Positions 17,258 through 43,470 of a stretch of DNA of 64,000 nucleotides are shown piece after piece. Below the pieces are notes generated by a model. That model ran no database searches. It worked only from the letters and a program-made list of their open reading frames with translations, and was not told the origin of the DNA. This DNA is from a bacterium. GTDB lineage: Bacteria; Patescibacteriota; Minisyncoccia; Phycocordibacterales; UBA2100. The stretch's first letter is position 1. Each line of letters opens with the position of its first letter. The stretch lies in the NCBI GenBank assembly GCA_009924895.1, contig RFQR01000001.1, positions 79,575 to 143,574 of the forward strand, read 5' to 3'. The position numbers and the translations under genes are program-made.

Positions 17258-18054
17258 GTAGGATGCTTTTCTTGATGCTTTTGGTGCCGCAGAGCACCTA
17301 TGCGAGCGTCATCGTCACAGAGATCATGTACAATGCGCCAGGCACGGATGCAAAACAAGAATGGATTGAACTCTATAACAATAGTTCAGAAACAGTTGAT
17401 CTGAAGGGATGGAAAATTTTTGACGGTTCAAATCATACGCTCGCCATCCCGCCCAAAAACGGGGGAGTCGGATCGCTTTCGCTCGCGCCCAATTCATACC
17501 TCATTGTTGCGGCAAACGCTGCACAATTTCTTTCACAGCATACGGTCACGGTTTCGGTCATTGATTCATCCCTTTCGCTGGGGAACGAGGGAGACATCGT
17601 GAAGCTCATTGATGGAAGCGGGTCGGTCGTTGATGCAGTAACGTATACAAAGAATGCGGGCGCGCGGGGCGATGGAAATAGCTTGCAGTGGAACGGTAGT
17701 GCTTTTATCGCTACGTCACCAACACCGGGTGAGGCGATGCGAGCAGTTGTTCAGAAACGTGTAGAGCCCCTCACGGCCCGGACCAGTGCACCAGAATCTC
17801 GCACAGTATCGAAAAAAATCTTGACATTTAAACAGCGTACCGAATCTAGAACGCCCTCCAACACAAAGTCTCGAAACGAAAGCGAGTTACCTGAATATAG
17901 CTCGAGCACTACGGAGTCTCTTGTGGCATCAGCAACGGTACCTTCGTGGAGCTGGGCGGGCGGCGCCGCTACGCTCTCGCTTCTTGCTGGTGGCGCGGTG
18001 TTTGCCGCACGCCGCATAAAAAGGGAAGAGTGGGATATTGAGGAAATCACATGA
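17254..18054 (+). CDS. Lamin-tail-domain (LTD) surface protein with a signal peptide and a C-terminal membrane anchor
   Basis: IVTEIMYNAPGTDAKQEWIELYNNSSETVDLKGWKI...GDIVKLIDGSGSVVDAVTY matches the LTD fold. The C-terminus AGGAATLSLLAGGAVFAARRIKRE is a TM helix followed by a basic tail. Confidence 0.7.
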   Translation: MSRMLFLMLLVPQSTYASVIVTEIMYNAPGTDAKQEWIELYNNSSETVDLKGWKIFDGSNHTLAIPPKNGGVGSLSLAPNSYLIVAANAAQFLSQHTVTVSVIDSSLSLGNEGDIVKLIDGSGSVVDAVTYTKNAGARGDGNSLQWNGSAFIATSPTPGEAMRAVVQKRVEPLTARTSAPESRTVSKKILTFKQRTESRTPSNTKSRNESELPEYSSSTTESLVASATVPSWSWAGGAATLSLLAGGAVFAARRIKREEWDIEEIT

Positions 18055-18932
18055 AGACGATAGGCTTTCTCTATATGAATACAACAAAGACGATTGTGGT
18101 GACTGGTGGCGCGGGGTTTGTTGGGTCTCATGTAGTGCAACGGCTTGTTGAAGGAGGGCACCGTGTGATTGTCGTTGATAATTATTTCATGGGAGCGGGC
18201 GTAAAAATCGAAGGTGCAGAATACCGTGAAGGTCATACCAAAAATATTGATGCGCTTGTCCCCGAAAAACCTGACCTTATCTTTCACCTCGGCGAGTATT
18301 CGCGCACCGAAGAAAGTCTGCTTGAGCCATATGTTGTATGGGACTTAAATATCGCCGGATCACTTGGTGTGTTTGAGTTTTGGCGCAAACACGGATGCAA
18401 ACTTATATATGCGGGCTCATCGACAAAATTCGCCGATGGAGGTGCGGGGAAAGCGCAAAGTCCGTACGCATGGTCAAAGTCGCTCAACAGTGAGACCGTA
18501 CGGCGGTACCACGAGTGGTACGGACTTCCGTTTGCCACTACGTATTTCTACAACGTGTTTGGTCCGGGCGAGCGCGCAGGGAAGTACGGGACCCTCATTG
18601 AGATTTTCCGACAGAAAATGCTACAGGGTGAGCCACTCACGGTGCGAAAGCCTGGTTCGCAAAAGCGAATCTTCACGCACGTTGAAGATATTGTTGATGG
18701 GCTTTTGTGTGTCGCAGAAAAGGGGGAGAATGACGAGTACGGCCTCGGTGCCGAAACGAAGTATTCAGTTCTTGATATTGCTCACTTTTTTGGGGGAGAG
18801 ATTGAATGGCTCCCCGAGCGCGGAGGCAACCGCGCTGATGCTTCGATTGACCTCACGACATCACACGCGCTTGGCTGGAAGGCACGGCGTGATGTTGTCG
18901 ACTATATTGCAGCAATAAAAAATAAACCATGA
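18051..18932 (+). CDS. NAD-dependent epimerase/dehydratase (short SDR-type nucleotide-sugar enzyme)
   Basis: The Rossmann motif VVTGGAGFVGSH and a YxxxK region are present. Confidence 0.8.
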   Translation: MKTIGFLYMNTTKTIVVTGGAGFVGSHVVQRLVEGGHRVIVVDNYFMGAGVKIEGAEYREGHTKNIDALVPEKPDLIFHLGEYSRTEESLLEPYVVWDLNIAGSLGVFEFWRKHGCKLIYAGSSTKFADGGAGKAQSPYAWSKSLNSETVRRYHEWYGLPFATTYFYNVFGPGERAGKYGTLIEIFRQKMLQGEPLTVRKPGSQKRIFTHVEDIVDGLLCVAEKGENDEYGLGAETKYSVLDIAHFFGGEIEWLPERGGNRADASIDLTTSHALGWKARRDVVDYIAAIKNKP

Positions 18933-19597
18933 AAACAGCAGTTCTCATTCACGGTCATCATTTGGGAACTTCCAATTGGGAAGAGGTAGTGTGGGGAGAT
19001 CCCAAAAGTGGAGTTTATGGGCGCGCACCTGCTGGCGTTCGTGAAGCAATTCGTTTTAATGCCGATATATTATTTTTTCCGACGGGAGGCTCAGAAAAAC
19101 AGGGGCTCAAGGAGGGGCAGTGGGCATTTAACATTACACAGGAGCGCTTTCGAGATATTCCAGAATGTAACCTGTGGACAGAGGATGAAGCGCACGATTG
19201 GCTCACAAAGCGTGCGGTACTTGAGCTCACTTCAACAACAACAGTGACAGAAATCGGAACGTGTATGAAAATTGCCCAAGAGAGAGGAATGGAACGCATT
19301 GTTCTAGTGTCGGGCCCAACACATCTTCCTCGCGCACTTCTCACAGCGCTCACACTATGCGCTTCTGATCCGCATGCATATCCGTATGCACACGGACTCT
19401 GCGCAATTCCATCTGACACCTGCTATGCGGGCACTACGGCAGAGGATGTGGTCATCGTTGAACCACCACACAGACCCGATCGAAACTCGTACCCGTTGCA
19501 CCAGTTAGTAAAAGAGCTACTTGCACAATCTAATGGAGAACAGGCAACGGACATACTTGCTAAGATTCAAGGGCTTTTGAACAAAACACAAATATGA
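18929..19597 (+). CDS. DUF218 (ElyC/SanA/YdcF-like) protein
   Basis: IVLVSGPTHLPRA resembles the DUF218 signature (SxYHMxRA). Confidence 0.5.
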   Translation: MKTAVLIHGHHLGTSNWEEVVWGDPKSGVYGRAPAGVREAIRFNADILFFPTGGSEKQGLKEGQWAFNITQERFRDIPECNLWTEDEAHDWLTKRAVLELTSTTTVTEIGTCMKIAQERGMERIVLVSGPTHLPRALLTALTLCASDPHAYPYAHGLCAIPSDTCYAGTTAEDVVIVEPPHRPDRNSYPLHQLVKELLAQSNGEQATDILAKIQGLLNKTQI

Positions 19598-20808
19598 AAA
19601 AAAGAGTTCTCATTTTTTCGCTCGCGTATTTTCCCAAGCACGTTGGCGGTGCAGAGGTGGCAATACAAGAAATCACTGATCGGTTACCTGACTATGAATT
19701 TCATATGGTAACGAATCGATTTGATTCGACTCTGCCCGCAGTGGAACAGGTTGGGAATGTATTAGTGCATCGCATCGGCATCACGACAAAAAACCCGAGC
19801 ATGGCCGACTTAAAAAAGTTTCCGCTCAATCTGAATAAGCCTCTTTTTCAGTTTCTTGCTGCGTGGAAAGGGTGGAGATTGCACAGGCAGTACCACTATG
19901 ACGCGACGTGGGCAATGATGGCACACAGTTGTGGTGTTCCTGCGGCGCTGTTTAAAATGTGTAATCCGTCAGTGCCCTATCTTTTGACACTGCAAGAAGG
20001 TGACTCGATTCCGTACATTGAGCGCAAAATGCGACCACTGTGGCCGCTCTTTATCCGCGCATTTACGCGAGCAGACATGGTGCAAGCGATATCGACGTTT
20101 CTCGGAACATGGGCGCGAGCACGGCACTTTACCGGGCAGTTAGAAGTTGTACCGAATGCCGTAAATACAGCACATTTTGCTCAGGAATTTCCTTTGAAAA
20201 TAATTGATGATGTTAAAACTGCGCTCAATAAAAAAATGGGGGATGTGTTTGTGATCACCACGTCACGTTTGGTGCATAAAAATGCTGTTGATGACATGAT
20301 TCGTGCACTACCACTACTTCCTGAGAATGTCTCGTTTATTGTTCTGGGTACGGGTCCTGATGAAGTGATGCTCAAAAAACTCGCATCTGATTTGAGGGTG
20401 CAGGAGCGTGTCCATTTTGTGGGACAAGTAGGCCATAAAGAGATGCCGCTGTATTTGAAAGCGTCAGACATTTTTATCCGCGCATCTCGTTCGGAGGGAA
20501 TGGGAAATTCGTTTGTGGAAGCGATGGCTGCGGGGCTTCCGGTGATTGCTACACAAGAAGGCGGTATCGCTGACTTTTTATTCGATGAGAAACGTAATCC
20601 TGATAAGCCAATTACGGGATGGGCAGTTGACACAGATTCGCCAAAGCAGATTGCAGAAGCCGTGCGAGAAATTATGTCTCGTCCTGAAAAAGTGCGCGCG
20701 GTTACTGCGACCGCAAAACAAATGGTCATTGAAAAATACGACTGGGACATTATTGCGCGCGATATGAAAACGAAAGTCTTTGAGCCGCTTTTGGGCATAC
20801 GTGGATAA
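19594..20808 (+). CDS. Glycosyltransferase family 4 (GT-B)
   Basis: EGMGNSFVEAMAAGLPVIAT matches the GT4 E-x7-E region. Confidence 0.85.
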   Translation: MKKRVLIFSLAYFPKHVGGAEVAIQEITDRLPDYEFHMVTNRFDSTLPAVEQVGNVLVHRIGITTKNPSMADLKKFPLNLNKPLFQFLAAWKGWRLHRQYHYDATWAMMAHSCGVPAALFKMCNPSVPYLLTLQEGDSIPYIERKMRPLWPLFIRAFTRADMVQAISTFLGTWARARHFTGQLEVVPNAVNTAHFAQEFPLKIIDDVKTALNKKMGDVFVITTSRLVHKNAVDDMIRALPLLPENVSFIVLGTGPDEVMLKKLASDLRVQERVHFVGQVGHKEMPLYLKASDIFIRASRSEGMGNSFVEAMAAGLPVIATQEGGIADFLFDEKRNPDKPITGWAVDTDSPKQIAEAVREIMSRPEKVRAVTATAKQMVIEKYDWDIIARDMKTKVFEPLLGIRG

Positions 20809-21068
20809 CTCCTTGCACTCTGTACCAACACAGCTATTGTTGAAATAGGTGATGGTGGTTGTTCCACCAGCCTATAAAGTGAAAGGATTCGTCATGAATT
20901 ACCGCTCGCAGCGAATGAGTGTGAGTGTAGTTTCTTCGTGGTCGACCTGGTCTTTCGTGAAGGGAGCCCTTCACAATTTTTCATACCCGCGTAAATGGCC
21001 TCCACGAGCGTAAGGCCTGAGCGCAGGGCATCGAGAGATTTGAATCCTTCGATGCCAGAAGAGTTTGA

Positions 21069-21105
21069 GGGGGCGCTGTGTTACACAGCGCCCCTCGATT
21101 CGTCT
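21069..21105 (+). terminator. Strong hairpin with a weak terminator context, in a 325-bp intergenic spacer
   Basis: A perfect 11-bp stem ggggcgctgtg-tta-cacagcgcccc is followed 10 nt later by ttttt. Confidence 0.35.
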
Positions 21106-21133
21106 TTTTCCATATTTCCGTTACAGTTATTGT

Positions 21134-22120
21134 ATGAAACTCGTGATTGCAACTGGCATTTATCCGCCTGAAATTGGCGGGCCTTCGTACTACGCCAAAG
21201 AGCTCGCGGAAGCCCTCACGCGCACGGGTCACGATATCACCGTCTGCACGTTCAGTGCGTTCAGGCGCTACCCGAGCGGTATTCGACATATTACGTACTT
21301 TTGGCATGTAGTGCGTGCAGCTCGTGATGCTCGAGCGATAATCGCTCTCGATACGTTTAGCGTGGGATTTCCAGGTTTTGTTGCAAGCATACTTACCGGC
21401 GTCCCAATTATTATCCGCACCGGCGGTGATTTCTTATGGGAATCATTTGTAAACCGTACGAACGAACCAATAGGTCTGTCAGAATTTTATGCGACTGATC
21501 ATGAGTTTACATTTAAAGAGCGACTCATATGGTCAATTACTCGTTTGGTAGTCCGCAGAGCGACTATGGTATTTAGTACTGCGTATCAGCGCGACCTCTG
21601 GATTGATGCGTATCGTATTGAAAAGCCGACGCATATTATTGCAAATGCAATTGAGTCTCAGCTTCCATCCTATCCACCAACACGAAAAAACTTTTTATGG
21701 TATGTACGAGACGTGGGGGTTAAAAATGGACCACGCGTTAAAGAGGCGTTTGCACTCGCACAAAAAGTGCACCCCGATATTGAGCTGGATACCGGACACG
21801 TCACCAAAGAAGAATTACTGAAGCGTATGGCAGCATGCTATGCAGTCATCTTGCCATCGCTTTCAGAAATTAGTCCCAACTATATTTTTGATGGACTTCG
21901 ATTCAAAAAGCCGTTTATAGTTACCGCTGAGTGCGGGCAAGCAGAATTACTGGAACCCTACGGCACGCTCGTTGATCCGACCAACGTGAACCGCATGGCA
22001 GATGTATTTTGTATGCTTGCGACTGACGAGGGGTATGAAGAAGCCAAAGCAAAAGCAGAGCACTTCGCATCAATTCGCACGTATGATGCCGTTGCCGAGG
22101 ATTTTTTACAATTACTATGA
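21134..22120 (+). CDS. Glycosyltransferase (GT4-like)
   Basis: MKLVIATGIYPPEIGGPSYYAKELAE is a GT4-type N-terminus. The start was chosen at the internal Met. Confidence 0.8.
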   Translation: MKLVIATGIYPPEIGGPSYYAKELAEALTRTGHDITVCTFSAFRRYPSGIRHITYFWHVVRAARDARAIIALDTFSVGFPGFVASILTGVPIIIRTGGDFLWESFVNRTNEPIGLSEFYATDHEFTFKERLIWSITRLVVRRATMVFSTAYQRDLWIDAYRIEKPTHIIANAIESQLPSYPPTRKNFLWYVRDVGVKNGPRVKEAFALAQKVHPDIELDTGHVTKEELLKRMAACYAVILPSLSEISPNYIFDGLRFKKPFIVTAECGQAELLEPYGTLVDPTNVNRMADVFCMLATDEGYEEAKAKAEHFASIRTYDAVAEDFLQLL

Positions 22121-23190
22121 ACGTATCTCCACGAAAAGTTTCTGAAGCGCTCAGAGTGCTCTCGATTGGTACCGATCGAACGCTGTTTGATAAGGAAAGC
22201 GCTGTTCGGGTACGTCAGAGAGCATTTGCTGCACGGTTTGATGCGTTCATAATCATTGTTTTTTCAACGGCACGACATCCTGAGGTTACAGAAGGGTCGC
22301 TGAAAATCATGAGTACTAACTCGCTCATGCCTCTTACATATGGTTTTGGTGCACTGCGCAGGGCAGCTGCTATTGATGCTGATATCGTTACGGCACAAGA
22401 TCCGTTTGAAACGGGGCTTGTCGCATGGTGTATTGCCTGGAGCAAACGAATACCGCTCCATGTACAAGTTCATACTGATCCTTTTAGTTCAAGCTTTAAG
22501 CGTCATTCTTTCATAAATCGTATCCGTACCATCATTGCACGGTTTGTGCTCAAGCGTGCGAGTGCGGTGCGTGTTGTGTCTGAGCGAGTCGCTGAGTCAG
22601 TGGAGCGGTACACACAAGCACCAATGAGCGTTTTACCGTTGTATACGGACATTGCACGCTTTGAATCGCTGCCGCGTTTAAAACACCCCCGCTTCAAAAT
22701 TGCGTTGTTGTTTATTGGAAGGCTGGAGTCAGAAAAGGGTTGTATGCAAGCGTTGCAGGCGCTTAAGCTGGTGCGCTCACGCGGACATGACGCAGGGCTC
22801 ACTATTGTTGGCTCGGGAAGAGAAGATCACGTGCTCAGAGAATTCGCTCGTGGAAATGGACTCGAGCAGCATGTCATTTTCTGCGGTTGGCGAGCAGATG
22901 TGAGTTCGTTTCTGAGCGAGGCTGATGCTCTGCTGGTCCCTTCTTTGTATGAAGGGTACGGTGTCGTTATAGTTGAAGCACTCGCAGCACATGTGCCTGT
23001 CATTGCGGCTGATGTTGGTGTCGCCCGAGAAGCAGGCGCTATCATTGCTGAATCCGACTTTACACAATCAGTGCTTGCGTGGGTCGAACATGGTCCACGC
23101 ACCGCTGACTTAAAACTCCCACTAATACATTCTTTTGACGAATACGTCGATGCGTGGGCGCAAGGAATAACCGAAGTTGTTCAACAATAA
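22117..23190 (+). CDS. Glycosyltransferase family 4
   Basis: SLYEGYGVVIVEALAAHVPVIAADVG is present. Confidence 0.85.
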   Translation: MNVSPRKVSEALRVLSIGTDRTLFDKESAVRVRQRAFAARFDAFIIIVFSTARHPEVTEGSLKIMSTNSLMPLTYGFGALRRAAAIDADIVTAQDPFETGLVAWCIAWSKRIPLHVQVHTDPFSSSFKRHSFINRIRTIIARFVLKRASAVRVVSERVAESVERYTQAPMSVLPLYTDIARFESLPRLKHPRFKIALLFIGRLESEKGCMQALQALKLVRSRGHDAGLTIVGSGREDHVLREFARGNGLEQHVIFCGWRADVSSFLSEADALLVPSLYEGYGVVIVEALAAHVPVIAADVGVAREAGAIIAESDFTQSVLAWVEHGPRTADLKLPLIHSFDEYVDAWAQGITEVVQQ

Positions 23191-23227
23191 GAATCGGGGA
23201 CCAATCGAAAGATTGGTCCCCACGTCA

Positions 23228-23839
23228 TCATGAAGGCACCACATCAGTTCGGGGTTTGTATGTTCCCCGAAGCTTGTCCGCAATGCCTTGGATTTCCTCT
23301 GCAACACGCTCTGCCAAAGTACCTTGCCCGAAAGCGTCGATGAGTTGCTCTTTGCTCCACTTCTCGGCGAGAAGGAGAAAGGATTCTGCCGAAAAGAGGG
23401 GGAGCATGAGGCCTGCTGCAGAAATATCCATTGCGGCCCGCGGCAGATGATAGTGGTTTGTTACCACAAAAGCATCACGCGGTTCCAATGCTTGTTGGTC
23501 ACGAATGATGGCAATGTTGCCACCAGTGTTCGAGTTAGAAGCTACCGCGGATAGTTTTGAGGGACTGATTTCATGATCATGCACCAGCATTTCTTTGATT
23601 GCGTGCGCCCTGTTCACGACTGGCTCTTCGCTTTTGTAGCGACCTTCGTTGCCGCCGACGAGTACGAGGTGCTCTGCATACCCGAGGCGGAGCAGGGATG
23701 CAAACCCAGCGAGCCGAAGTTCTCCAAAGAGATACTTCCGAGAACCGAGGTCCGTGAGTGCGGGTTTGAAACCACTACGTCGTCCAAGGTCTTTTTCCAC
23801 GTCGAACGCAAGTCCATAGGCGTGAGAATACTCGGCCAT
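23228..23839 (-). CDS. DUF218 (ElyC/SanA/YdcF-like) protein
   Basis: VVTNHYHLPRA matches the DUF218 signature. Confidence 0.6.
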   Translation of the reverse strand: MAEYSHAYGLAFDVEKDLGRRSGFKPALTDLGSRKYLFGELRLAGFASLLRLGYAEHLVLVGGNEGRYKSEEPVVNRAHAIKEMLVHDHEISPSKLSAVASNSNTGGNIAIIRDQQALEPRDAFVVTNHYHLPRAAMDISAAGLMLPLFSAESFLLLAEKWSKEQLIDAFGQGTLAERVAEEIQGIADKLRGTYKPRTDVVPS

Positions 23840-24835: not shown

Positions 24836-24844
24836 AATAGGAAG

Positions 24845-25873: not shown

Positions 25874-26568
25874 GTGTTGTCATACCCACGTATAATGAGG
25901 AGCACAGTATTCGTGCCGCAATTGATGGTTTTTTTGCGACAGGCTTTGTAGATGAAGTCGTCGTCGTCGACAACAATGCTCGCGGTAACACCGCACAAGA
26001 AATACAGAAAACACGCGCGGTACATGTGCGAGAGACAGAAAAGCAGGGTTATGGCCATGCTATCATGCGCGGTCTTATAGAATCGACAGGTGATCTAATT
26101 ATTGTTTGCGAAGGCGATGGAACGTTTGACCCTCGAGATACCGAAAAATTTTTGATCTATTCTCGGAATTTTGATGTGGTCTTTGGTTCACGTACATCCC
26201 GGTCTACAGTACTTGGTAATGCTTTCATGCCCGAATCAGTGCGAATCGGTAACTGGGGCATGGCGAAATTTTTGGAATTTCTTCATAACGGAACTGTTAT
26301 AACTGATGTAGGATGCACGTTTCGTCTCTTGTCCCGCTCAGCTCTCGAGAAGATAAAACCACTATTCCCATTCTCTGACGGCGGAGGAAGATTCTCGCCT
26401 GAAATGATGATATGGCTTTTCCGCTCAAACCTGCGCTGTATTGAGATTCCGGTCATGTATAAAGAGCGCGTTGGTCAGAGCATGTATACCGGCTCAGTGT
26501 GGAAGGCGGCGCGTTTGGGTTTTTTCATGATACCACTTATCATCTGGTACCGATTTAAAAAAATATGA
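25852..26568 (+). CDS. GT2-family glycosyltransferase (dolichol/polyprenol-phosphate sugar synthase-like)
   Basis: VSVVIPTYNEE...VVVVDNNA and a DxD region are present. Confidence 0.85.
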   Translation: MFERKKVSVVIPTYNEEHSIRAAIDGFFATGFVDEVVVVDNNARGNTAQEIQKTRAVHVRETEKQGYGHAIMRGLIESTGDLIIVCEGDGTFDPRDTEKFLIYSRNFDVVFGSRTSRSTVLGNAFMPESVRIGNWGMAKFLEFLHNGTVITDVGCTFRLLSRSALEKIKPLFPFSDGGGRFSPEMMIWLFRSNLRCIEIPVMYKERVGQSMYTGSVWKAARLGFFMIPLIIWYRFKKI

Positions 26569-27206: not shown

Positions 27207-27207
27207 T

Positions 27208-29935: not shown

Positions 29936-29939
29936 TTCT

Positions 29940-30704: not shown

Positions 30705-30724
30705 CTAAGTAAAATACCGACACT

Positions 30725-31993: not shown

Positions 31994-32024
31994 AATGAGT
32001 GTGTGAGGCACCTCACGATACTCC

Positions 32025-35731: not shown

Positions 35732-35733
35732 TT

Positions 35734-36435
35734 ATGCAGCTCACGGTACTCATTCCAACGTATAACGAGGCGGGGAATATTGCGGATTTTCTTTCTGAAC
35801 TTTCTCGTGTAGCGCCCGATGCAAAATTGTTAGTGGTAGATGATAATTCCCCTGACGGCACCGGTACTATTGTGAAAGGTCTTGCCCTCAAAAATCCACA
35901 GATAGAACTTTTGCATCGTGAAAAAAAAGAGGGGCTGGGAAAAGCATATTTGCATGCATTTACTGAAGTGCTGCGAGACGCACGTACGGAATCAGTGCTA
36001 ATGATGGACGCTGATTTTTCACACGATCCAGAATATATTAGTCAGATGCGCGAAGCACTCACCGATGCAGATGTGGTTATTGGTTCTCGATACTGTGCGG
36101 GCGGTGCAACTGAAGGATGGGAGAGATGGCGCAAGGCATTGAGTAAGTATGGAAATCTTTACGCTGGTCTGATAACGCAAATGCCGGTACGTGATATGAC
36201 GGCTGGATTTTGTCTGATTCGCGCCTCGCTCCTGCGGAAACTTGATTTAAAGAGGCTCGGATCATCTGGATACGCGTTTCAAATTGAACTGAAATATCGT
36301 CTCTTTCAGGCGGGTGCACGTATTCGCGAAGTGCCCATTCATTTCAAAAATCGTCGAGAGGGAGAATCGAAAATCTCGCGTCATATCATTCGAGAGGGTA
36401 TTATTGCCCCATGGCTTCTCCGGTTCAAAAAATAG
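35734..36435 (+). CDS. GT2 polyprenol-phosphate sugar synthase-like transferase (DPM1-like)
   Basis: LTVLIPTYNEAGNI...LLVVDDNSPDGT is present. Confidence 0.85.
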   Translation: MQLTVLIPTYNEAGNIADFLSELSRVAPDAKLLVVDDNSPDGTGTIVKGLALKNPQIELLHREKKEGLGKAYLHAFTEVLRDARTESVLMMDADFSHDPEYISQMREALTDADVVIGSRYCAGGATEGWERWRKALSKYGNLYAGLITQMPVRDMTAGFCLIRASLLRKLDLKRLGSSGYAFQIELKYRLFQAGARIREVPIHFKNRREGESKISRHIIREGIIAPWLLRFKK

Positions 36436-37274
36436 CGGCTTGTCCGCATTGCTTGCGGCAAGTAGTCTACTGGTTTAGCAAAAATTCATACCATCTCTAT
36501 CGTTGTTCTTGTGGTTTAGGTTTTGTACATCCGTTGCCGAATCCGAGTGAGGTGTACAGTACTGATTACTTCTCGGGCGCCCATGAAGGGTTTGGCTATG
36601 CGGACTACGATCGTGATAAGGAGGTGATGGTGCCAACGTTTCGTGAATACATTCGCCGCATTAAAGTACTTAAGCCAACGGGCTGTCTACTCGACATTGG
36701 TGCTGCAACAGGCTTTTTTCTCAACATCGCGCGTATGGAAGGGTTTCAGATTGAAGGAGTTGAGATTTCTATGTTTGCGGCTGAGCGTGCACGCGAAAAA
36801 GGGATTGTGATGCATACAGGAACACTTGAGACGTTTCGTTCAATTAAACAGTTTGATGTAATAACGATGCTCGATCTTCTCGAACATGTCACCGATCCAC
36901 AAGCACTGCTGAAACGTGCTCGAGATATGATGGGAGCGGGAGGTGTGCTTATTATCAATACTCCCGATTTTAGATCATGGTATGCGCGTATGCTGGGGAA
37001 AGGCTGGCATCTTATTGTTCCACCAGAGCATTTGTATTACTACACGCGACCAGTTTTGCGGGAGATGCTTGACCGAGCGGATTTTGAAATCGTTGAAATG
37101 ACCACAATTGGCAAAAAATTTACTCTGCCTTATATTTTCACCACACTCTATAAGTGGCTTGGGCTTTCGATTTTTGCGTCACTTTCGCACATGACTGAGC
37201 GCGGCGTGTTTGCGCGAATCGGCATCCCGATTAATCTCTATGACAACGTATTTATCATTGCTCGCGCAAAGTAA
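36411..37274 (+). CDS. Class I SAM-dependent methyltransferase with an N-terminal Cys4 zinc ribbon
   Basis: CPHC...CSCG is followed by LLDIGAATGFF (motif I). Confidence 0.75.
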   Translation: MASPVQKIAACPHCLRQVVYWFSKNSYHLYRCSCGLGFVHPLPNPSEVYSTDYFSGAHEGFGYADYDRDKEVMVPTFREYIRRIKVLKPTGCLLDIGAATGFFLNIARMEGFQIEGVEISMFAAERAREKGIVMHTGTLETFRSIKQFDVITMLDLLEHVTDPQALLKRARDMMGAGGVLIINTPDFRSWYARMLGKGWHLIVPPEHLYYYTRPVLREMLDRADFEIVEMTTIGKKFTLPYIFTTLYKWLGLSIFASLSHMTERGVFARIGIPINLYDNVFIIARAK

Positions 37275-37278
37275 AGAG

Positions 37279-38934
37279 ATGCGCTCCATTCTACTTGGTG
37301 TGTGCATCACATGGTTTTTTTTGCTTGCTCCGTACGCGTACGTGCTGATGGCTTGGGGAACGTATTCGGTCCCGATTGAATTAGTCGACGATTCTCATTA
37401 CTATCTCGCGCGCATGGTCGCGGTTTCTCATGGATACCCGCTTATCGGGAATCCATATATCGCCGAACATGCGAATGATCCCGCCATTGCATTTTTTGGC
37501 GCTGATTGGCTTGGCGCCATACCACTGTTTTTGGGTTTTTCTGTGGTCGGCGCAGAGCTTTGGAATATTGTATTTTGGAGTGCTGCATCAGCGCTCTCGC
37601 TGTGGTATTTTGCACGTTCTTTTGCGTGGTCGTCCCGGCAGTATTTATTTTTAGTAAGTGTCGTTACGGTGTCCGCACTTCCTATGCTGTTACGACCGGT
37701 TGCAATGCAGATTGTCTTTCCGCTCTTTCTCGCATTTCTTGCCGCACTCAAAGGCTGGTTGGATGAGCCTCATAGCCATCGTCGTTCAGTACTCCTTGCA
37801 CTATTTTCGATTATTCCTTTTTATCTCTATACGTACTTTTGGCAGATTGTAGTTGTGGCGTTTGCGATTCTGCATCTAATTGCGTGGAAAAAAGCACAGT
37901 ACCGTATGCCGCTCTTTTGGGTTGACTGCGCGGTTGGTATTGGCGCTCTGCCGATGGCACTCTACACGCTGCATCAGCTTTCACTCCCGTTGTATTGGGA
38001 AACAGTCACACGAATCGGATTTGTCGCAACGCATACGTTCGGTTTTTCAGGAGTTCTCGCGGCGCTGTTTATTGTAGTTCCACTTTTTGCGCTATGGTTT
38101 TCTTATCGATCTTCACTCGATTCGTTTTGGGTGATTGTTGCGATCTCGTTGTGGGTAGCAGCGTGGAGTAATGTCATTTCAGGAAAAGATCTTGAAACTG
38201 CAGTTCACATGATGCGCTTTGTCATGGTATACGCCGTAAGTGCCAGTGTTGCGGTGCTTTTTTCTCTTGAAAATAAGAAAACCATAAGCATATACGCTGC
38301 TCTAATCTGTGTTGTGGTGGTAGGAGTATACCAACTTCATGACGTGTATCGTTTCTCGGCAGTCTTATCTTCTGACCCTCGCACGGGAGAGCAGTATGCG
38401 CCGTTGTTTACATGGCTAAACGAACATGCGCAAACGGGAGATGTCGTTCTCTCGCCGTATGATATTGGTCGGTACATGCCGATTATGACAACCCAGTTTG
38501 TTCTCTATCATCCGAACGCGGAGCTTTTTTTGATGTCAGACCGCGAGGTAGAAGACCGCTACCTCGCTTCGCATGTTTTTGACTCACTTACTTTGTCGGA
38601 TATTGAACGCGATTTTCGATTATATGCGGGTGCGGGCAATTCCTTGCATCAGTACAAAACTCATAATCGTGAAGTAACACTGTGTCGATGGTTGCAGCAA
38701 TCGGATTGTGGAGTATATGCAACAGAGTTCTCGTGGAGAGGGGAAGCATATTTTAGGTCTCTGCTCAATCGTTTCCAAGACATACAGCGGTCACCCTCTA
38801 AAACACTGCGAACATGGAATGTACGGTATGTTATTTTGGACTCAATAAAACTACCAAAATCAAACCTCCCCCTTCAGGTTCAGGTTGTGATTGGTCCGTA
38901 CACCATCTACCGAGTACCCGTTACGACTTCATGA
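37279..38934 (+). CDS. Large polytopic membrane protein, possibly a glycan polymerase or transferase
   Basis: It has more than 10 TM helices and a C-terminal soluble domain. The start was chosen just after the upstream stop. Confidence 0.5.
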   Translation: MRSILLGVCITWFFLLAPYAYVLMAWGTYSVPIELVDDSHYYLARMVAVSHGYPLIGNPYIAEHANDPAIAFFGADWLGAIPLFLGFSVVGAELWNIVFWSAASALSLWYFARSFAWSSRQYLFLVSVVTVSALPMLLRPVAMQIVFPLFLAFLAALKGWLDEPHSHRRSVLLALFSIIPFYLYTYFWQIVVVAFAILHLIAWKKAQYRMPLFWVDCAVGIGALPMALYTLHQLSLPLYWETVTRIGFVATHTFGFSGVLAALFIVVPLFALWFSYRSSLDSFWVIVAISLWVAAWSNVISGKDLETAVHMMRFVMVYAVSASVAVLFSLENKKTISIYAALICVVVVGVYQLHDVYRFSAVLSSDPRTGEQYAPLFTWLNEHAQTGDVVLSPYDIGRYMPIMTTQFVLYHPNAELFLMSDREVEDRYLASHVFDSLTLSDIERDFRLYAGAGNSLHQYKTHNREVTLCRWLQQSDCGVYATEFSWRGEAYFRSLLNRFQDIQRSPSKTLRTWNVRYVILDSIKLPKSNLPLQVQVVIGPYTIYRVPVTTS

Positions 38935-40168
38935 ACTGCCACGAAACTATCGCAGCGTTTCCGGCGCGATATATGATTTGTGCAATGACAGCGCCCATAA
39001 TCCCATAGAGCGGAACGAGGATAAGGATGGATGCAATTAAAATAATCGAAGGGCCATTGGTGACGATGTAGAGGGCACGTGTTTTTTTGTGTGCCGTCAA
39101 AGAAGCAAGAAGCATGGGCGGAATTGCAGAAAAGACAATAGAAAGTGCATACCATTGTGAATACTGCACAGAATCGAGGTACACAGGAAAGAATACTCGA
39201 AACAACAGTGGAGCAATCAGGATATAAAGACCAATACAGGCAAACGTAAACAACGAGAGGAGGAGTATTTTTCGCCAGAGTGTAACGCGCAGTTCTTCGA
39301 GTGGTCGACCGGTAAGTTTTGGTAATGAGAGGCCATAGAAATTTTTGAGCACACCTTTGAGTTGTTCAGGAGCGGCGCCTGCGAATGCATAGGTTGCCAA
39401 TTGTACAGGACCAAGAAGTGAAAAGATAATTATACTGTCGAACTTGTCAGCAATTGCCGCCAAAATATTCATCACACTGAGATGAGAACTGTAGTGGAGT
39501 AGTTCAGGGTCGGTGATGGTGTTGCGTGCGTGCGTGCGTGCCTTCCAAAAAAAGTATCCTGAAGCAATTGTTTTTGCAAGAAAATAAGTGCCGACCAAAA
39601 TAATCGCTCGTTCGCCCAAAAAAAGTGCGGCAATCATGGCAATGAAGGTAAACGTATTTGTTCCAATGAGAGAAAGAGAGCCGCGGGCAAAGTCTTTTTG
39701 GGCGAAGAAAAAACCAGCAAAGGGTGAGAGTGCTGACAATAGCGGTTGGAGAAAGGCGACAATAATCAAGGCGCTCGCCAGATATCCGTTACCAAGAAAT
39801 CCATAATAGGCGCTGGCACCTAAGGAGAGTAAGACAAAAGGCAGGCTCCATTTGATTTGCAGTTTAAATGACTGCACGAGTGTCCCGTCGAGTCCTCGTG
39901 CGACTGATTGCGACATGGCATCGCCAAGTCCCGAGAGCGAAATGGCCCCGAACATGGCGGCGAGCGATAACACGTATTTATAGTTACCGTACATGTCTTT
40001 GCTTGCAAAATGCCCAAACGCAATAGCGAGGCTCATTGAGAGCGCGATGCCAACCGCTTGTTCAAGTACGAGCCAAAACCCGCCGGAAGCCAAATACACC
40101 ATGTCGGTTTTGGTATAGCGCTCGCTCCAGCGCAGGATACTGTAAGTAGAGGCACGCAACTTATCCAT
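38921..40168 (-). CDS. Wzx-type polysaccharide flippase (MOP/MATE superfamily)
   Basis: It has 12-14 TM helices and a polysaccharide-biosynthesis-protein pattern. The start was chosen at MDKLRAST, since the longer track ORF overlaps the divergent gtrA. Confidence 0.75.
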   Translation of the reverse strand: MDKLRASTYSILRWSERYTKTDMVYLASGGFWLVLEQAVGIALSMSLAIAFGHFASKDMYGNYKYVLSLAAMFGAISLSGLGDAMSQSVARGLDGTLVQSFKLQIKWSLPFVLLSLGASAYYGFLGNGYLASALIIVAFLQPLLSALSPFAGFFFAQKDFARGSLSLIGTNTFTFIAMIAALFLGERAIILVGTYFLAKTIASGYFFWKARTHARNTITDPELLHYSSHLSVMNILAAIADKFDSIIIFSLLGPVQLATYAFAGAAPEQLKGVLKNFYGLSLPKLTGRPLEELRVTLWRKILLLSLFTFACIGLYILIAPLLFRVFFPVYLDSVQYSQWYALSIVFSAIPPMLLASLTAHKKTRALYIVTNGPSIILIASILILVPLYGIMGAVIAQIIYRAGNAAIVSWQFMKS

Positions 40169-40212
40169 ACCGGCATGGTAGCGCGAAAAAAGTAGACTTG
40201 GTAGCATAGAGC

Positions 40213-40599
40213 ATGCAAATTCCGCAGACAGCTCGATTCTTAATTGCCGGGTCGACAGGTGCTGTGGTAAATCTCTCAACGTTTTATGTGCTCGAGCAGA
40301 TATGGGATGTATGGTACATAACGGCATCTGTCTTTGCATTTTTATTAGCCTTCGTTGTTGGCTTTCTATTGCAGCGATTCTGGACGTTCGAATACACCGG
40401 GAGTGATGACTTCCATCGACATGCACTGATGTATTTTGTAACCGCGTTGGTGAATGTTGGGATTAACGCGGGCATTGTTGCGATTCTTGTTGAACGGTGG
40501 TCTCTCTGGCCCTTGTTTGCGCAAGCGCTCGCTGGTACAATTGTTGCAGTATGGAGTTTCTTTATCTACCGATATGTTATCTTTGTTGAAAAGATATGA
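40213..40599 (+). CDS. GtrA-family membrane protein
   Basis: RFLIAGSTGAVVNLSTFYVL and four TM helices over about 128 aa are present. Confidence 0.7.
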   Translation: MQIPQTARFLIAGSTGAVVNLSTFYVLEQIWDVWYITASVFAFLLAFVVGFLLQRFWTFEYTGSDDFHRHALMYFVTALVNVGINAGIVAILVERWSLWPLFAQALAGTIVAVWSFFIYRYVIFVEKI

Positions 40600-41090
40600 A
40601 GAAAAAAAATAAAAAAACAGTGGCAAAAAATGCAAAACCAAAGTGGGTTGCGGTTTCGGGTGGTTTTGACCCCATCCATATCGGGCACGTCCGCATGTTT
40701 CAACAAGCGCGCAAATATGGCGATAAACTTGTTGTGATTTTAAATAACGATAATTGGCTAGAGGCGAAAAAAGGATATGCATTCATGAATGAAAAAGAAC
40801 GCGCCGAACTCATCAGTGCATTTCCAGAAGTCGACAAGGTGGTGATTACTTCACATATAAAAAACGACTCAGATCGTAGTGTGTGTCGTGAGCTTGCTAA
40901 ATTAAAGCCAGCAGTATTTGCCAATGGTGGGGATCGAAAGCCAGATGGTGATCCGGTTCCCGAAGTTGAGCTCTGCAGTAAGCTCGGTATTAAGATGGTC
41001 TACAACATCGGCAAGGGAGGTAAGGTGCAGTCATCCTCCTGGCTGGTAAATGCTGCAATCGAGAACGCAGCAAGAAACAGGAAAGGCTAG
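40596..41090 (+). CDS. Cytidylyltransferase-like nucleotidyltransferase (TagD/RfaE-domain-II-like)
   Basis: SGGFDPIHIGHVRMF matches the HxGH motif. Confidence 0.7.
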   Translation: MKKKNKKTVAKNAKPKWVAVSGGFDPIHIGHVRMFQQARKYGDKLVVILNNDNWLEAKKGYAFMNEKERAELISAFPEVDKVVITSHIKNDSDRSVCRELAKLKPAVFANGGDRKPDGDPVPEVELCSKLGIKMVYNIGKGGKVQSSSWLVNAAIENAARNRKG

Positions 41091-41136
41091 TGGTCAACTC
41101 TAGCGGCAGGGCGGGGGGTCTGATAGCATACAGTGC

Positions 41137-43470
41137 ATGTCACTTGAAAAAGTATTGCGCGCTGTGGTCTTAACTGGAGTCTTTGCGCTCCCTTTTATTC
41201 CTTTTATTGTCTCATCAAACCTCTTCTTCCCGTTTATTACCGGTAAGAATTTTGCATTTCGTTTATTTGTTGAGATTGCAGTAGGAGCGTGGCTTGCGCT
41301 CGCTTTTGTACATCCGCAGTATCGACCGCGCCGCTCGTTTGTATTAGGTGCGTTCGTGTTTTATGCAGCCGCACTCCTCCTTTCTGCACTCTTTAGCTTC
41401 AATCCGGTTCGCAGTATCTGGAGTAATTACGAACGCATGGAGGGGTGGATAACGATTGCACACCTGGTTGCGTATCTTACCGTTTGTTTGTCGGTCATGA
41501 CGAGCGAGCGTTTGTGGCGCAATTGGTGGATGGTCTCAATGCTCGCGTCTATCGGCATCGGTCTCTTTGGGGTATTGCAGCTCATGGGAGCTCTTACCAT
41601 CAACCAGGGGGGTATTCGTCTCGATGCGACTCTTGGTAATGCGACCTATCTTGGCGTATACATGCTCTTTCACATCTTCATTGCCGTGCTCTATCTCGTT
41701 CGAGAAGGTGGTGAGTACTGGAATACGACCGAAAAAGCGGTTGTCGGTGGAGCTGCGCTTCTTTGGCTGCTCTCGGTCTTGAGCCTCCTTCAAGGTCAAC
41801 TTTCAATTGGTAAACCATTCTTTGTCCAATTTCTTCTCGCTGGTTTTGGTTTTTTGCTAGTACTGACTTTGAGACGATCGTATGCACTCTCAGCACTTAT
41901 CGCTCTTGCAGCGACCATTCTATTTTTCACCGCGACCCGTGGTGCAATGGTGGGTCTTGCAGGTGGAGCGTTTCTCGCGGCGATTACCTATGTTGTGCTT
42001 GAGCCCTGCTCGCGAATGGCATGGCGAACTGGTGTTGCAGTTATCGCAGCTCTTGCGCTTGTTGGAATGTTTTATCTCGGCCGTGAATCGACGTTTGTAC
42101 GAAATATCGAGCCACTCCAGCGACTTGCTACCATGTCGATTTCTGATAGCAGCTTTACGGGTCGTTTGGTGAACTGGAGTATGGCATGGAATGGCGTTAA
42201 GGAACGTCCGATTCTCGGTTGGGGTCAAGAAAACTACGGCCTCGTCTTTAACAAATACTTTGATCCGCGCATGTATGGGCAAGAGCCGTGGTTTGATCGA
42301 GTCCATGAAGTCGTACTTGATCAGCTTATCGCGGGCGGTATGGTAGGACTTCTTGCATACCTCTCGCTGTATCTCGCGGCACTATACTGTCTGTGGCGCA
42401 GTGGCGCGTTTGACTCGGTTGAGAAAAGTATTCTCACTGGTCTTCTTGCGGGATACTTTTTCTATCTCGTGTTTACGTTCGACAATATAACGAGTTGGGT
42501 GTTGTTTGTCTCTCTCCTTGCATTTATTGCAGTGCGTGCGGCGCTTGCACAACAATCGCGCGTCGTATTTACTTCCGGCGGTATGCCACTGCAGTCGCTT
42601 CCTATGGTGGCGGTTGTTGTATCGGTTGCCACGGTCGCAAGCATTTGGTACCTCAATGGTCCTGCGTATCTCGCTAATCGCGAATTAATTCAAGCGGTCA
42701 CGCCGCAGCGCGGAGGCGTTATCGTAAACTACGATCACTTTACCAAAGCGCTCTCGTATAACGCTCTCGGAATGCAAGAAATTCGTGAGCACCTCGCACA
42801 GGGCACGGCGCAGCTTGCAAACGCACAAAGTGTCTCTGAGGACGTCAAGAAGAAGTTCTATGATTTGGCAACCGGCGAGATGCTTACTATGCAAAAGCAG
42901 GTGCCGCTTGAGGCGCGCTTCCCGCTCTTTTTGGGCATGGTCTACACTGCGTATGGCCAGTTTGATTTGAGTGGGCAAGAGTACCAGAAAGCGCTCGCAA
43001 TCTCTCCAAAGAAAATTGATATCTTGTTCCAAGCTGGCGCGAACGCCTTGAACGCAAAGAAGAATGACCAAGCGCTTGCGTACTTCAAACAAGCGTATGA
43101 GCTGGTGCCGAACAATGATGATGCTCGCACGCTCTACGTCGCGATGGCAATTCAAGTCGGTAAACTTGATCTTGCAAAAGAGCTTACTGTGCCGCTCATG
43201 GCAAGCGACAAACTGTACCAGTCGCGTGTCATGAATGCCTATGCGGCAGGGAAGTATTACAAAGAAGTGATTGCGATTGTTCAAAATCACATCAAGTTGA
43301 AACCCTATGATCCGCAGGCCCGTTTCACGCTGGCAGCGGCATACTATCTGGCAGGCGATAAACAAACAGCAATAAAGACACTGCAAGAGGCTGCGCAGCA
43401 GTTGCCAGACATTGCTCAACAAGCGAACCAGCTTGTCGATCAAATCAAAAAAGGCACGATAAAGATTTAG
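41137..43470 (+). CDS. O-antigen-ligase/Wzy-like membrane protein fused to C-terminal TPR repeats
   Basis: It has about 12 TM helices and a TATRGAMVGL loop (Wzy_C-like). The C-terminal roughly 250 aa have TPR-like AxxY periodicity. Confidence 0.7.
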   Translation: MSLEKVLRAVVLTGVFALPFIPFIVSSNLFFPFITGKNFAFRLFVEIAVGAWLALAFVHPQYRPRRSFVLGAFVFYAAALLLSALFSFNPVRSIWSNYERMEGWITIAHLVAYLTVCLSVMTSERLWRNWWMVSMLASIGIGLFGVLQLMGALTINQGGIRLDATLGNATYLGVYMLFHIFIAVLYLVREGGEYWNTTEKAVVGGAALLWLLSVLSLLQGQLSIGKPFFVQFLLAGFGFLLVLTLRRSYALSALIALAATILFFTATRGAMVGLAGGAFLAAITYVVLEPCSRMAWRTGVAVIAALALVGMFYLGRESTFVRNIEPLQRLATMSISDSSFTGRLVNWSMAWNGVKERPILGWGQENYGLVFNKYFDPRMYGQEPWFDRVHEVVLDQLIAGGMVGLLAYLSLYLAALYCLWRSGAFDSVEKSILTGLLAGYFFYLVFTFDNITSWVLFVSLLAFIAVRAALAQQSRVVFTSGGMPLQSLPMVAVVVSVATVASIWYLNGPAYLANRELIQAVTPQRGGVIVNYDHFTKALSYNALGMQEIREHLAQGTAQLANAQSVSEDVKKKFYDLATGEMLTMQKQVPLEARFPLFLGMVYTAYGQFDLSGQEYQKALAISPKKIDILFQAGANALNAKKNDQALAYFKQAYELVPNNDDARTLYVAMAIQVGKLDLAKELTVPLMASDKLYQSRVMNAYAAGKYYKEVIAIVQNHIKLKPYDPQARFTLAAAYYLAGDKQTAIKTLQEAAQQLPDIAQQANQLVDQIKKGTIKI

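Follow-up and report, generated by a model that had tools for sequence, protein, structure and literature searches.

Positions 18051-43907 of a 64,000-nucleotide stretch (the window) of contig RFQR01000001.1, which comes from a bacterium of the Patescibacteria, or candidate phyla radiation (CPR), are occupied by a compact block of about 26 consecutive, nearly all co-directional genes for glycan-related proteins, as identified from the open reading frame (ORF) listing and Pfam, NCBIfam and PDB searches. This block probably is a cell-envelope glycan assembly locus that consists of three parts: a nucleotide-sugar module, a lipid-linked assembly line and two triads, each of which encodes a GT2 glycosyltransferase, an S-adenosylmethionine (SAM)-dependent methyltransferase and a GT-C glycosyltransferase. 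The assignment is based on gene content, family and fold assignments, catalytic motifs and a gene order that is conserved across CPR lineages; from these, we infer the likely substrates, regiochemistry, nucleotide carrier, order of reactions, roles of the methyltransferases and acceptor. Such a number of glycan-related genes in a row, many of them with 4-nucleotide (nt) overlaps between start and stop codons and others separated by fewer than 50 nt, is far beyond chance expectation. All genes of the locus are on the forward strand except for those of the second DUF218-domain protein and the Wzx-type flippase.

The initial annotation of 18051-43470, which was made from the sequence alone, is largely borne out: all the genes that it named were found in or close to their proposed places, and nearly every family call was reproduced by the ORF, Pfam, NCBIfam and PDB analyses. 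In particular, Pfam or NCBIfam matches were obtained for the proposed epimerase (18051), RfbB (28901), RfbA-like enzyme (29940), TylC3-like C-methyltransferase (30725) and DegT-type aminotransferase (32025), and the three further SAM methyltransferases are those encoded at 26565, 33064 and 36411, the last of which contains the N-terminal CPHC...CSC motif. The two DPM1-like GT2 enzymes (25852 and 35734) both have PDB entry 5mlz as the top match, and the GT39/ArnT-like transferase (a PMT_2 protein, 27208), Wzx, GtrA, the cytidylyltransferase-like protein (40596) and the Wzy_C protein with TPR repeats (41137) are all matched by Pfam. The count of at least eight GT4 and GT2 transferases was one too high for these families, of which Pfam detects five and two members, respectively; the eighth transferase is a GT-A-fold protein (33729-34550) that is seen by structure prediction only.

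The nucleotide-sugar module (28901-33732; Table 1) opens with an RmlB-like 4,6-dehydratase that reaches 280 bits with the model of the deoxythymidine diphosphate (dTDP) type (TIGR01181, by far its top match) versus 59 bits with the models of the CDP and GDP types. The RmlA-like nucleotidylyltransferase that follows covers positions 1-232 of the 286 in TIGR01207 and lacks the C-terminal ~55 residues of RmlA; orthologues with 45-53% identity are found in the same position in three related loci, L007, L010 and L011 (L001-L055 are related loci that were compared by tblastn of all window proteins). The next protein shows the three domains of the nucleoside diphosphate (NDP)-hexose C-methyltransferases, all above the respective cut-offs (PF08421, 54.9 bits; the SAM domain PF13489, 54.2 bits; PF08484, 121.9 bits). 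Its only PDB matches at E <= 1e-3 are the sugar 3-C-methyltransferases MtmC (4rv9; E = 2.3e-57, residues 16-420), KijD1 (5t64) and TcaB9 (3ndi), at about 30% identity and with full-length alignments in the range of E from 2e-57 to 4e-47, which places it with these enzymes and not with N- or O-methyltransferases. Residues Y83, H188, Y229, D231 and H232 align with the catalytic residues of TcaB9 (Tyr76, His181, Tyr222, Glu224 and His225 in the numbering of the Holden laboratory); D231 is a conservative replacement of the glutamate. In 18 CPR homologues of this enzyme, Y83, H188, Y229 and H232 are invariant, and the consensus of the clade is YHEH.

The DegT-family protein contains the pyridoxal phosphate (PLP) lysine, not the histidine of ColD/E1 dehydratases, and matches sugar aminotransferases (PF01041, 250 bits; ArnB, PseC and WecE-like models) rather than non-sugar PLP enzymes. 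Its scores are higher with enzymes that act at C-4 (ArnB, 183 bits; PseC, 178; WecE-like, 168; PDB 4lc3, 140) than with the C-3 enzymes QdtB and WbpE (~95 bits), and perosamine synthase is among its top matches; judging from these relatives, it probably acts at C-4. A candidate for O- or N-methylation of the sugar is the Methyltransf_24 (MT24) enzyme encoded at the end of the module.

By analogy with characterized pathways, the simplest route would start with activation of glucose-1-phosphate by the RmlA-like enzyme, most likely with dTTP, and lead through dTDP-glucose to the NDP-4-keto-6-deoxyglucose that the RmlB-like enzyme would produce. The TylC3/MtmC-type enzyme would then add a methyl group to the carbon beside the keto function, which is most likely C-3; transamination of C-4 by the DegT enzyme and another methylation by the MT24 enzyme would follow to give a derivative of NDP-4-amino-4,6-dideoxy-3-C-methylhexose. 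The most likely product is thus predicted to be dTDP-4-amino-4,6-dideoxy-3-C-methylhexose, perhaps further methylated, that is, a sugar similar to kansosamine or sibirosamine.

The 273-amino acid (aa) protein encoded next to the module yields no match in Pfam, NCBIfam and PDB sequence searches, even at E <= 10, and probably falls outside the described sequence families, of which those of Pfam and NCBIfam were searched, and hence also outside those of CAZy. We identified 399 homologues with ~57-81% identity, those named in the source being annotated as 'hypothetical' and the named organisms all belonging to Patescibacteria, and only 145 representative clusters of this family were retrieved when 1.84 billion representatives were searched with a profile. 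When eight members were scanned, Pfam remained blank over the domain except for a faint Glyco_tranf_2_3 match (E 0.0014) in one distant member; in one relative, the protein is joined to a TOD1/MUCI70 GT-like domain. In a Foldseek search of the PDB with the AlphaFold (AF2) model of this protein (pLDDT 89.7, pTM 0.90), every one of the first 41 matches is a GT-A glycosyltransferase, WrtF, BcsA, RmlT, SpsA and TarP being among them, with E ~1e-5 and a probability of 1.00 for nearly all of them. The family shows two invariant motifs, HDDN (117-120) and GERG (243-246), and the invariant D118-D119 are located right after the strand 112-117, where GT-A enzymes have DxD. On the strength of the model, we confidently predict that this protein is a GT-A-fold glycosyltransferase, recognizable by structure prediction only; it is likely to be a dedicated transferase for the amino-deoxysugar of the module, which it would add to the growing glycan.

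The sequence of the C-methyltransferase is identical to NBV76659.1 and that of the 273-aa protein to NBV76662.1 (locus tags EBR66_*), and the same protein is present on 13 contigs of the Logan assembly collection. Among the 2,946 relatives of the C-methyltransferase detected in the protein database at E <= 1e-10, the closest 120 are 63-79% identical. When GTDB genomes were scanned, the enzyme was detected in Saccharibacteria, Levybacteria, Yanofskybacteria, Falkowbacteria and unclassified Patescibacteria metagenome-assembled genomes (MAGs), with 62-74% identity, and in a Nitrososphaerota archaeon, with 44% identity. Two C-methyltransferases with 74% identity, in L009 (JBBRAL010000042.1) and P0008, come from MAGs labelled Hyphomicrobiales and Actinomycetes, and these may be mis-binned CPR contigs or cases of horizontal transfer.

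The order GT4-GT4-dehydrogenase-GT4 ... SDR-RmlA-C-methyltransferase-DegT-MT24-GT-A-GT4 ... Wzx-Wzy_C/TPR recurs in L006, L007, L010 and L011; of these, L007 and L010 preserve the long-range arrangement that leads from GT4 to Wzy_C-TPR, and the other two preserve part of it. With close C-methyltransferase homologues and the same gene order in several tiny-genome lineages of Patescibacteria, the locus appears to be a lineage feature, contrary to the initial impression that such chemistry is unexpected in a reduced genome. The uniform composition of the window (GC 0.45-0.52) and the synteny across CPR lineages speak against a recently acquired horizontal island.

In the Saccharibacteria locus L010, the cassette consists of genes for SDR, RmlA-like, RmlC, C-methyltransferase, DegT, MT24, the 273-aa protein and GT4. 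The RmlC of L010 scores 200.8 bits, above the equivalog cut-off of 155.75, and RmlC-like genes 61-79% identical to it are present in nine further related loci (tblastn). The presence of RmlC in syntenic loci supports dTDP as the carrier and indicates an L-series sugar in those genomes that possess RmlC. Two genes of L010 have no counterpart in the window, namely those for an Exostosin/GT47-like glycosyltransferase (6838-7680, forward strand; 43 bits with PF03016) and a methyltransferase of the FkbM family (17016-17684), which shows that modules are swapped between versions of the locus. In a set of 46 loci, metagenomic or genomic, that extend 5 kb or more upstream of the GT-A gene, this upstream region contains DegT, directly upstream, in 29, MT24, likewise directly upstream, in 21, RmlC in 10 and a C-methyltransferase (>= 55% identity) in 9. 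The far more frequent pairing with DegT and MT24 than with the C-methyltransferase implies that the conserved unit is DegT-(MT24)-GT-A-GT4, to which C-methylation is an optional addition.

The two triads (25852-28866 and 35734-38934) show the same order of GT2, SAM methyltransferase and GT-C genes, with a single GtrA encoded separately; the combination of GT2, GtrA and GT-C that characterizes polyprenyl-phosphate-sugar decoration systems is thus present in the locus. Both GT2 proteins lack transmembrane (TM) segments, and have AglJ and dolichol-phosphate (Dol-P)-hexose transferase as the top NCBIfam matches. The top PDB match of both, 5mlz, is the dolichol-phosphate mannose synthase (DPMS) of Pyrococcus furiosus (E = 1.7e-28 over residues 1-220 for the second triad; 5.8e-11 for the first, which is a candidate polyprenyl-phosphate glycosyltransferase), and ArnC is likewise among the best matches of both. 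The GT-C protein of the first triad contains a DE pair (residues 30-31) in the first loop. The corresponding 551-aa protein of the second triad, with 25 homologues, has no match in Pfam and NCBIfam; its AF2 model (pLDDT 91.4) finds AftA, STT3, PglB, DPY19, AglB and ArnT as the top Foldseek matches, and DD37-38 are located in the first loop. Accordant with this model, we are confident in the prediction that this protein is a second GT-C glycosyltransferase, recognizable by structure prediction only. The triads do not appear to result from a recent duplication: the alignment of the two methyltransferases covers 127 aa with 24% identity (E 7e-6), and no alignment is obtained for the GT-C proteins. 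Further copies of the second triad are present in L033 and L054; it is weakly matched in L028, and L040 ends after the GT2-MT23 pair. Together with GtrA, the triads would load single sugars onto polyprenyl phosphate and flip them, the methyltransferases presumably modifying the sugar, and the GT-C proteins would then add these probably methylated sugars outside the membrane to the glycan or to proteins.

In the proposed lipid-linked line, the five GT4 proteins and the GT-A enzyme would assemble the glycan on a polyprenyl carrier, Wzx would flip the lipid-linked product, and the Wzy_C-TPR protein would polymerize it or ligate it to an extracytoplasmic acceptor. The Wzy_C domain belongs to the superfamily of O-antigen ligases, polymerases and O-oligosaccharyltransferases; a PDB sequence search with the complete protein returned TPR proteins only and does not separate these three roles. 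Orthologues of Wzy_C-TPR with 32-44% identity are encoded in L007, L010, L054 and L055.

Table 1. Features of the glycan locus and their coordinates in the window
Feature	Coordinates	Strand	Evidence and remarks
SDR epimerase/dehydratase-family protein, 293 aa	18051-18932	+	PF01370 139.7 bits; GGAGFVG and YAWSK motifs
DUF218-domain protein (weak)	18929-19597	+	PF02698 27.6 bits, exactly the cut-off
GT4 glycosyltransferase 1	19594-20808	+	PF00534 120.3 bits; orthologue in L011 with 60% identity
GT4 glycosyltransferase 2 (weak match)	21134-22120	+	PF13579/PF13439/PF13692 29-36 bits; after 325-nt gap
GT4 glycosyltransferase 3	22117-23190	+	PF13692 97.3 bits
Hairpin, 12 bp, G+C-rich	23195-23222		Between convergent genes; likely bidirectional terminator; sole strong terminator-like site
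DUF218-domain protein	23228-23839	-	PF02698 37.2 bits
UGDH-like dehydrogenase, 297 aa	23942-24835	+	PF03721 and PF00984 only; no C-terminal UDP-binding domain
GT4 glycosyltransferase 4	24845-25873	+	PF00534 39.4 bits; 40-51% conserved in CPR loci
Triad 1, soluble DPMS/ArnC-like GT2	25852-26568	+	PF00535 82.1 bits; EGD instead of DAD
Triad 1, class I SAM methyltransferase	26565-27206	+	PF08241 47 bits
Triad 1, GT-C (PMT_2/ArnT-like)	27208-28866	+	PF13231 48.4 bits; ~11 TM helices
NDP-glucose 4,6-dehydratase (RmlB-like)	28901-29935	+	TIGR01181 280 bits (cut-off 365.1); TDE143 and YSASK168
Sugar-1-phosphate nucleotidylyltransferase, short, RmlA-like, 254 aa	29940-30704	+	TIGR01207 238 bits (cut-off 360.65)
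NDP-hexose C-methyltransferase (TylC3/MtmC/KijD1/TcaB9 family), 422 aa	30725-31993	+	PF08421, PF13489 and PF08484
DegT-family sugar aminotransferase	32025-33077	+	PF01041 250.1 bits; PLP lysine K180 in SFQAIK, then GDGG
MT24 SAM methyltransferase	33064-33732	+	PF13578 42.4 bits; faint O-methyltransferase similarity
GT-A-fold glycosyltransferase (predicted), no sequence family, 273 aa	33729-34550	+	AlphaFold model and Foldseek; candidate amino-deoxysugar transferase
GT4 glycosyltransferase 5	34592-35731	+	PF13692 60 bits; in most related loci located 3' of GT-A
Triad 2, soluble DPMS-like GT2	35734-36435	+	PF00535 97 bits; DAD92 motif
Triad 2, SAM methyltransferase (MT23)	36411-37274	+	PF13489 96.2 bits; N-terminal CPHC...CSC zinc-ribbon-like motif
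Triad 2, GT-C fold (predicted), no sequence family, 551 aa	37279-38934	+	~11 TM helices and C-terminal soluble domain
Wzx-type flippase	38921-40207	-	PF01943 36.3 bits; ~10 TM helices; gene call of 428 aa in L001
GtrA/DPMS-TM family small membrane protein	40213-40599	+	PF04138 79.4 bits
HIGH-motif nucleotidyltransferase (RfaE domain II/TagD-like)	40596-41090	+	PF01467 51.5 bits; HIGH28
Wzy_C membrane domain and C-terminal TPR repeats	41137-43470	+	PF04932 65.6 bits (residues 254-409); TPR 566-770
NUDIX hydrolase	43473-43907	+	PF00293 78.5 bits; 2 nt 3' of the Wzy_C gene; locus membership uncertain

Several other genes of the locus encode proteins of recognizable families with less specific predictions. 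The SDR protein, whose gene overlaps the upstream lamin-tail-domain (LTD) gene by 4 nt, is a possible epimerase or 4-ketoreductase; it reaches none of the NCBIfam equivalogs (top matches ~72 bits). The two DUF218 proteins, described initially as paralogues, both match PF02698, but cannot be aligned to each other (BLASTP E = 12), so that this term overstates their kinship. The nucleotide-sugar dehydrogenase retains the N-terminal and central domains of UDP-glucose dehydrogenase (UGDH) and the catalytic-cysteine motif GGGCFIKD at residue 235, but the C-terminal domain is gone: the match to TIGR03026 (120 bits, cut-off 189.8) covers profile positions 71-293 of 413, and the alignments with UGDH structures in the PDB end near chain residue 300. 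Orthologues of similar length (46-54% identity) are found in the same position in L006, L007 and L010; given that this short form is maintained in the loci of Saccharibacteria and other Patescibacteria, the gene is not a pseudogene. The HIGH-motif nucleotidyltransferase scores 66 bits with TIGR02199 (cut-off 181.5), and its orthologues in L053 and L054 (67-69% identity) are encoded beside Wzx or Wzy_C genes. The start of the second GT4 gene, an ATG at 21134, matches a 328-aa gene call in L001.

The initial annotation ended the locus at 43470; the block reaches at least that far and probably extends through the NUDIX gene, which encodes a possible nucleotide-sugar hydrolase, to end before tRNA-Met (43926-44000). 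Inside the tightly packed locus, the boundary of a transcription unit is probably marked by a 325-nt non-coding gap (20809-21133), which contains a 7-bp hairpin with a T-rich stretch behind it (20957-20974). Promoter and terminator scans gave counts no higher than in shuffled sequence, with only the 23195-23222 hairpin standing out, and an Rfam search detected no RNA family within the locus.

Several observations weigh against the reading of the block as a single assembly locus with the sugar proposed here. The RmlA-like and RmlB-like enzymes score well under the NCBIfam equivalog cut-offs, which weakens the prediction of their nucleotide specificity, and 'RmlA-like' is the best description of the former. 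In the C-methyltransferase, only C18 and C61 of the zinc site (CxxC...CxxC) are retained, the partners being T21 and S64, and this loss (C-x-x-T ... C-x-x-S) is also seen in the consensus of the 18 CPR homologues; C38, which is part of a conserved QPPC motif in the CPR enzymes, could be a substitute zinc ligand. Relatives of the sugar C-methyltransferases include C-5 enzymes of the NovU type. No RmlC was detected in the window by tblastn, although the syntenic loci carry it, and no N-acyltransferase for the amino group was found in the locus. The TM-scores of the Foldseek matches of the 273-aa model (0.42-0.48) are under the usual same-fold line of 0.5, and the preference of the GT-A gene for DegT and MT24 over the C-methyltransferase suggests that its donor is an amino sugar in general rather than the C-methylated one. 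Among the window ORFs of at least 150 aa and the locus genes, which is the scope of all window-wide negatives from the Pfam and NCBIfam scans, there is no initiating phosphoglycosyltransferase of the Bac_transf, Glycos_transf_4 or MraY/WecA type, no chain-length regulator (Wzz) and no LCP ligase; a priming phosphoglycosyltransferase is also missing downstream of the locus in L010. Without a priming enzyme in the window, the lipid-linked line is incomplete as seen, and the primase may be encoded elsewhere on the source contig. Part of these observations would fit a different chemistry performed by the same enzymes, with methylation at C-5 as in NovU, amination at C-3, or UDP or another carrier: in addition to the low scores of the RmlA-like (truncated by ~55 residues) and RmlB-like enzymes, the aminotransferase is under every NCBIfam equivalog cut-off, and the CPR clade of C-methyltransferases is divergent (~30% identity to the solved enzymes) and has the degenerate zinc site. 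We nevertheless consider this alternative unlikely because every relative in the PDB is a C-3 methyltransferase, the top matches of the aminotransferase are all C-4 enzymes, the Pfam and NCBIfam scans of the locus proteins reveal no 3,4-ketoisomerase, which a C-3 aminotransferase needs, and RmlC in the syntenic loci points to dTDP.

The block may also consist of several independent systems side by side, that is, a ~25-kb supercluster in which a Wzx/Wzy_C line, two polyprenyl-phosphate-sugar decoration systems and a nucleotide-sugar cassette are merely adjacent. At least four likely transcription units, delimited by the 325-nt gap between 20808 and 21134, the convergent genes with the hairpin, and the minus-strand Wzx gene, are compatible with such an arrangement, as is the occurrence elsewhere of DegT-MT24-GT-A without C-methyltransferase or GT-C genes and of GT2-MT23-GT-C at differing positions. 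Conversely, the order from GT4 to Wzy_C-TPR is kept in distant CPR lineages and many of the genes are translationally coupled, and we regard mere adjacency as somewhat improbable, if a serious contender. Decoration of a macrolide- or aminoglycoside-like secondary metabolite, which is suggested solely by the homology of the C-methyltransferase to enzymes of antibiotic pathways, is extremely improbable and was rejected: polyketide synthases (PKS), non-ribosomal peptide synthetases (NRPS), GT1 glycosyltransferases and the 2-deoxygenation enzymes 2,3-dehydratase and 3-ketoreductase are all absent from the window ORFs of at least 150 aa and the locus genes, and the genes that surround the module encode Wzx, Wzy_C, GT-C and GT4 proteins. 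Moreover, C-methyl sugars are known in surface glycans, namely virenose (PMC3539893) and kansosamine (PMC4403928). The label 'macrolide-sugar-like' in the initial annotation is accordingly apt for the C-methylation step alone. As for its broader proposal of a C-methylated amino-deoxysugar displayed on a glycan, homology places an NDP-sugar module beside Wzx/Wzy_C and polyprenyl-phosphate-sugar/GT-C genes, and the identities of the sugar, carrier and acceptor are predictions.

A more specific version of the glycan-assembly reading, which we put forward as a tentative and rather doubtful possibility, is a CPR-specific protein glycosylation system in which a shared 4-amino-4,6-dideoxyhexose, C-methylated in some lineages, the present one among them, is attached to surface proteins through the new GT-A family, the triads and Wzy_C-TPR. 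The TPR fusion might hint at protein acceptors by analogy with OGT and TMTC, and one could speculate that these are an S-layer protein or the pilins of the type IV cluster 16 kb downstream. If true, such glycosylation would bear on attachment to host cells.

The flanks of the locus fit a CPR/Patescibacteria genome, with genes for Mur ligases, a racemase, TrwB/VirD4-like coupling, lamin-tail, dockerin and WxL-interacting-domain proteins, and a type IV pilus cluster. Directly 5' of the locus (15182-18054), two genes encode a type IV coupling protein that resembles TrwB/VirD4 (691 aa) and a protein with a lamin-tail domain (266 aa), and the 4-nt overlaps between these and the first glycan gene suggest co-transcription. 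The pilus cluster (52034-62945) is complete, with PilM, PilO, PilB-like and PilT-like ATPases, PilC, the PilD prepilin peptidase, an unassigned protein at the position of PilN and four or five pilins that bear methylation motifs at the N-terminus. O-oligosaccharyltransferases of the Wzy_C family classically target pilins. On the reverse strand at 5891-8743, two adjoining genes encode DUF4430-domain proteins, the larger of which (740 aa) shows a weak match to the squalene-hopene cyclase C-terminal domain (30.1 bits) and is perhaps not a cyclase but a surface or binding protein. Finally, a possible integrated element (789-5634) carries a gene for a LAGLIDADG-like protein (789-1586) and an ORF (3667-5601) for a large serine recombinase, in which Resolvase, Recombinase and Zn-ribbon domains are recognized; at its 3' end, this ORF overlaps tRNA-Leu(CAG), which is encoded on the other strand (5551-5634). 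Antisense to the 5' end of the recombinase ORF, a full-length LOOT RNA motif (RF03000; 73.2 bits, gathering threshold 46.4, E 7.5e-12) is located at 3704-3826 on the reverse strand.

How the CPR envelope is structured and assembled is still poorly understood (PMC5220378), and genes for extracellular polysaccharide are essential or required for fitness in the epibiotic growth of a cultivated Saccharibacterium (PMC10633639). The locus and its syntenic copies in Saccharibacteria provide a concrete, testable parts list, including a nucleotide-sugar cassette that could be reconstituted in vitro. Nothing is overturned by these findings, given that C-methyl and amino-deoxy surface sugars and glycosyltransferase-rich CPR genomes are already known; the two family-less transferases with known folds, the C-methyltransferase clade with a degenerate zinc site and the paired GT2-methyltransferase-GT-C triads are modestly new.

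Comparison with known systems reveals partial similarity to several of them. The C-methyltransferase shares the three-domain architecture and the catalytic Tyr/His/Tyr-x-acid-His pattern with MtmC, KijD1, TcaB9 and TylC3, whereas, compared with MtmC and TcaB9, threonine and serine replace two of the four zinc cysteines; furthermore, those enzymes are encoded in antibiotic clusters, in contrast to the surface-glycan context, without 2-deoxygenation genes, of the present locus. As in Wzx/Wzy O-antigen, capsule and S-layer loci and systems of the PglL/WsaB type, genes for Wzx, a Wzy_C protein, several GT4s and a nucleotide-sugar cassette form one block, but unlike in Wzx/Wzy loci, there is no priming phosphoglycosyltransferase or Wzz in the window and Wzy_C is fused to TPR repeats. 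CPR bacteria have been described as lacking lipopolysaccharide (LPS) (PMC5220378); with no LPS expected in this organism, the acceptor cannot be lipid A-core. The DPMS-like GT2, GtrA-family and GT-C proteins resemble GtrABC, ArnC/ArnT, DPM1/PMT and Haloferax AglJ/AglP/AglB. AglP is a methyltransferase embedded in the Agl pathway, and methyltransferases are likewise embedded among the polyprenyl-phosphate-sugar genes of the locus. Unlike in these routes, the GT2 proteins lack a TM domain, two triads share one GtrA, and one GT-C protein belongs to no sequence family.

WrtF, the GT-A 6-deoxyhexose transferase of Rhizobium tropici, is, as predicted for the 273-aa protein, a single-domain cytoplasmic enzyme of ~270 aa encoded in a glycan locus rich in 6-deoxyhexoses (PMC12595478) and is the top structural match of the 273-aa protein (PDB 9omh; E 1.2e-5, TM 0.46); with 12% sequence identity and GAD in WrtF versus the invariant DD, the likeness is at the fold level only. 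Virenose, a C-methylated 6-deoxyhexose of the LPS O-antigen, is associated with a TylCIII homologue (CBU_0691) in Coxiella burnetii, an obligate intracellular, host-dependent bacterium (PMC3539893). In both cases, a TylC3-type enzyme would act on an NDP-4-keto-6-deoxyhexose for a surface glycan, as predicted for the locus, but the Coxiella product is reduced at C-4 and probably GDP-linked, whereas the locus encodes an aminotransferase and presumably uses a dTDP-like carrier. Kansosamine and sibirosamine, the sugar of sibiromycin, are 4-amino-4,6-dideoxy-3-C-methylhexoses. The predicted enzymes of the locus (thymidylyltransferase, 4,6-dehydratase, C-methyltransferase, C-4 aminotransferase and methyltransferase) are the set needed for such sugars, and the syntenic Saccharibacteria loci carry RmlC, as an L-manno sugar would require; unlike for kansosamine, the window lacks RmlC and an N-acyltransferase, and the likeness is judged on the enzyme set, the product being predicted from it. 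N-acyl kansosamine is a sugar of the lipooligosaccharide (LOS) of Mycobacterium kansasii (PMC4403928), and CPR genomes that encode some 20 glycosyltransferases together with rmlABCD have already been described (PMC5220378).

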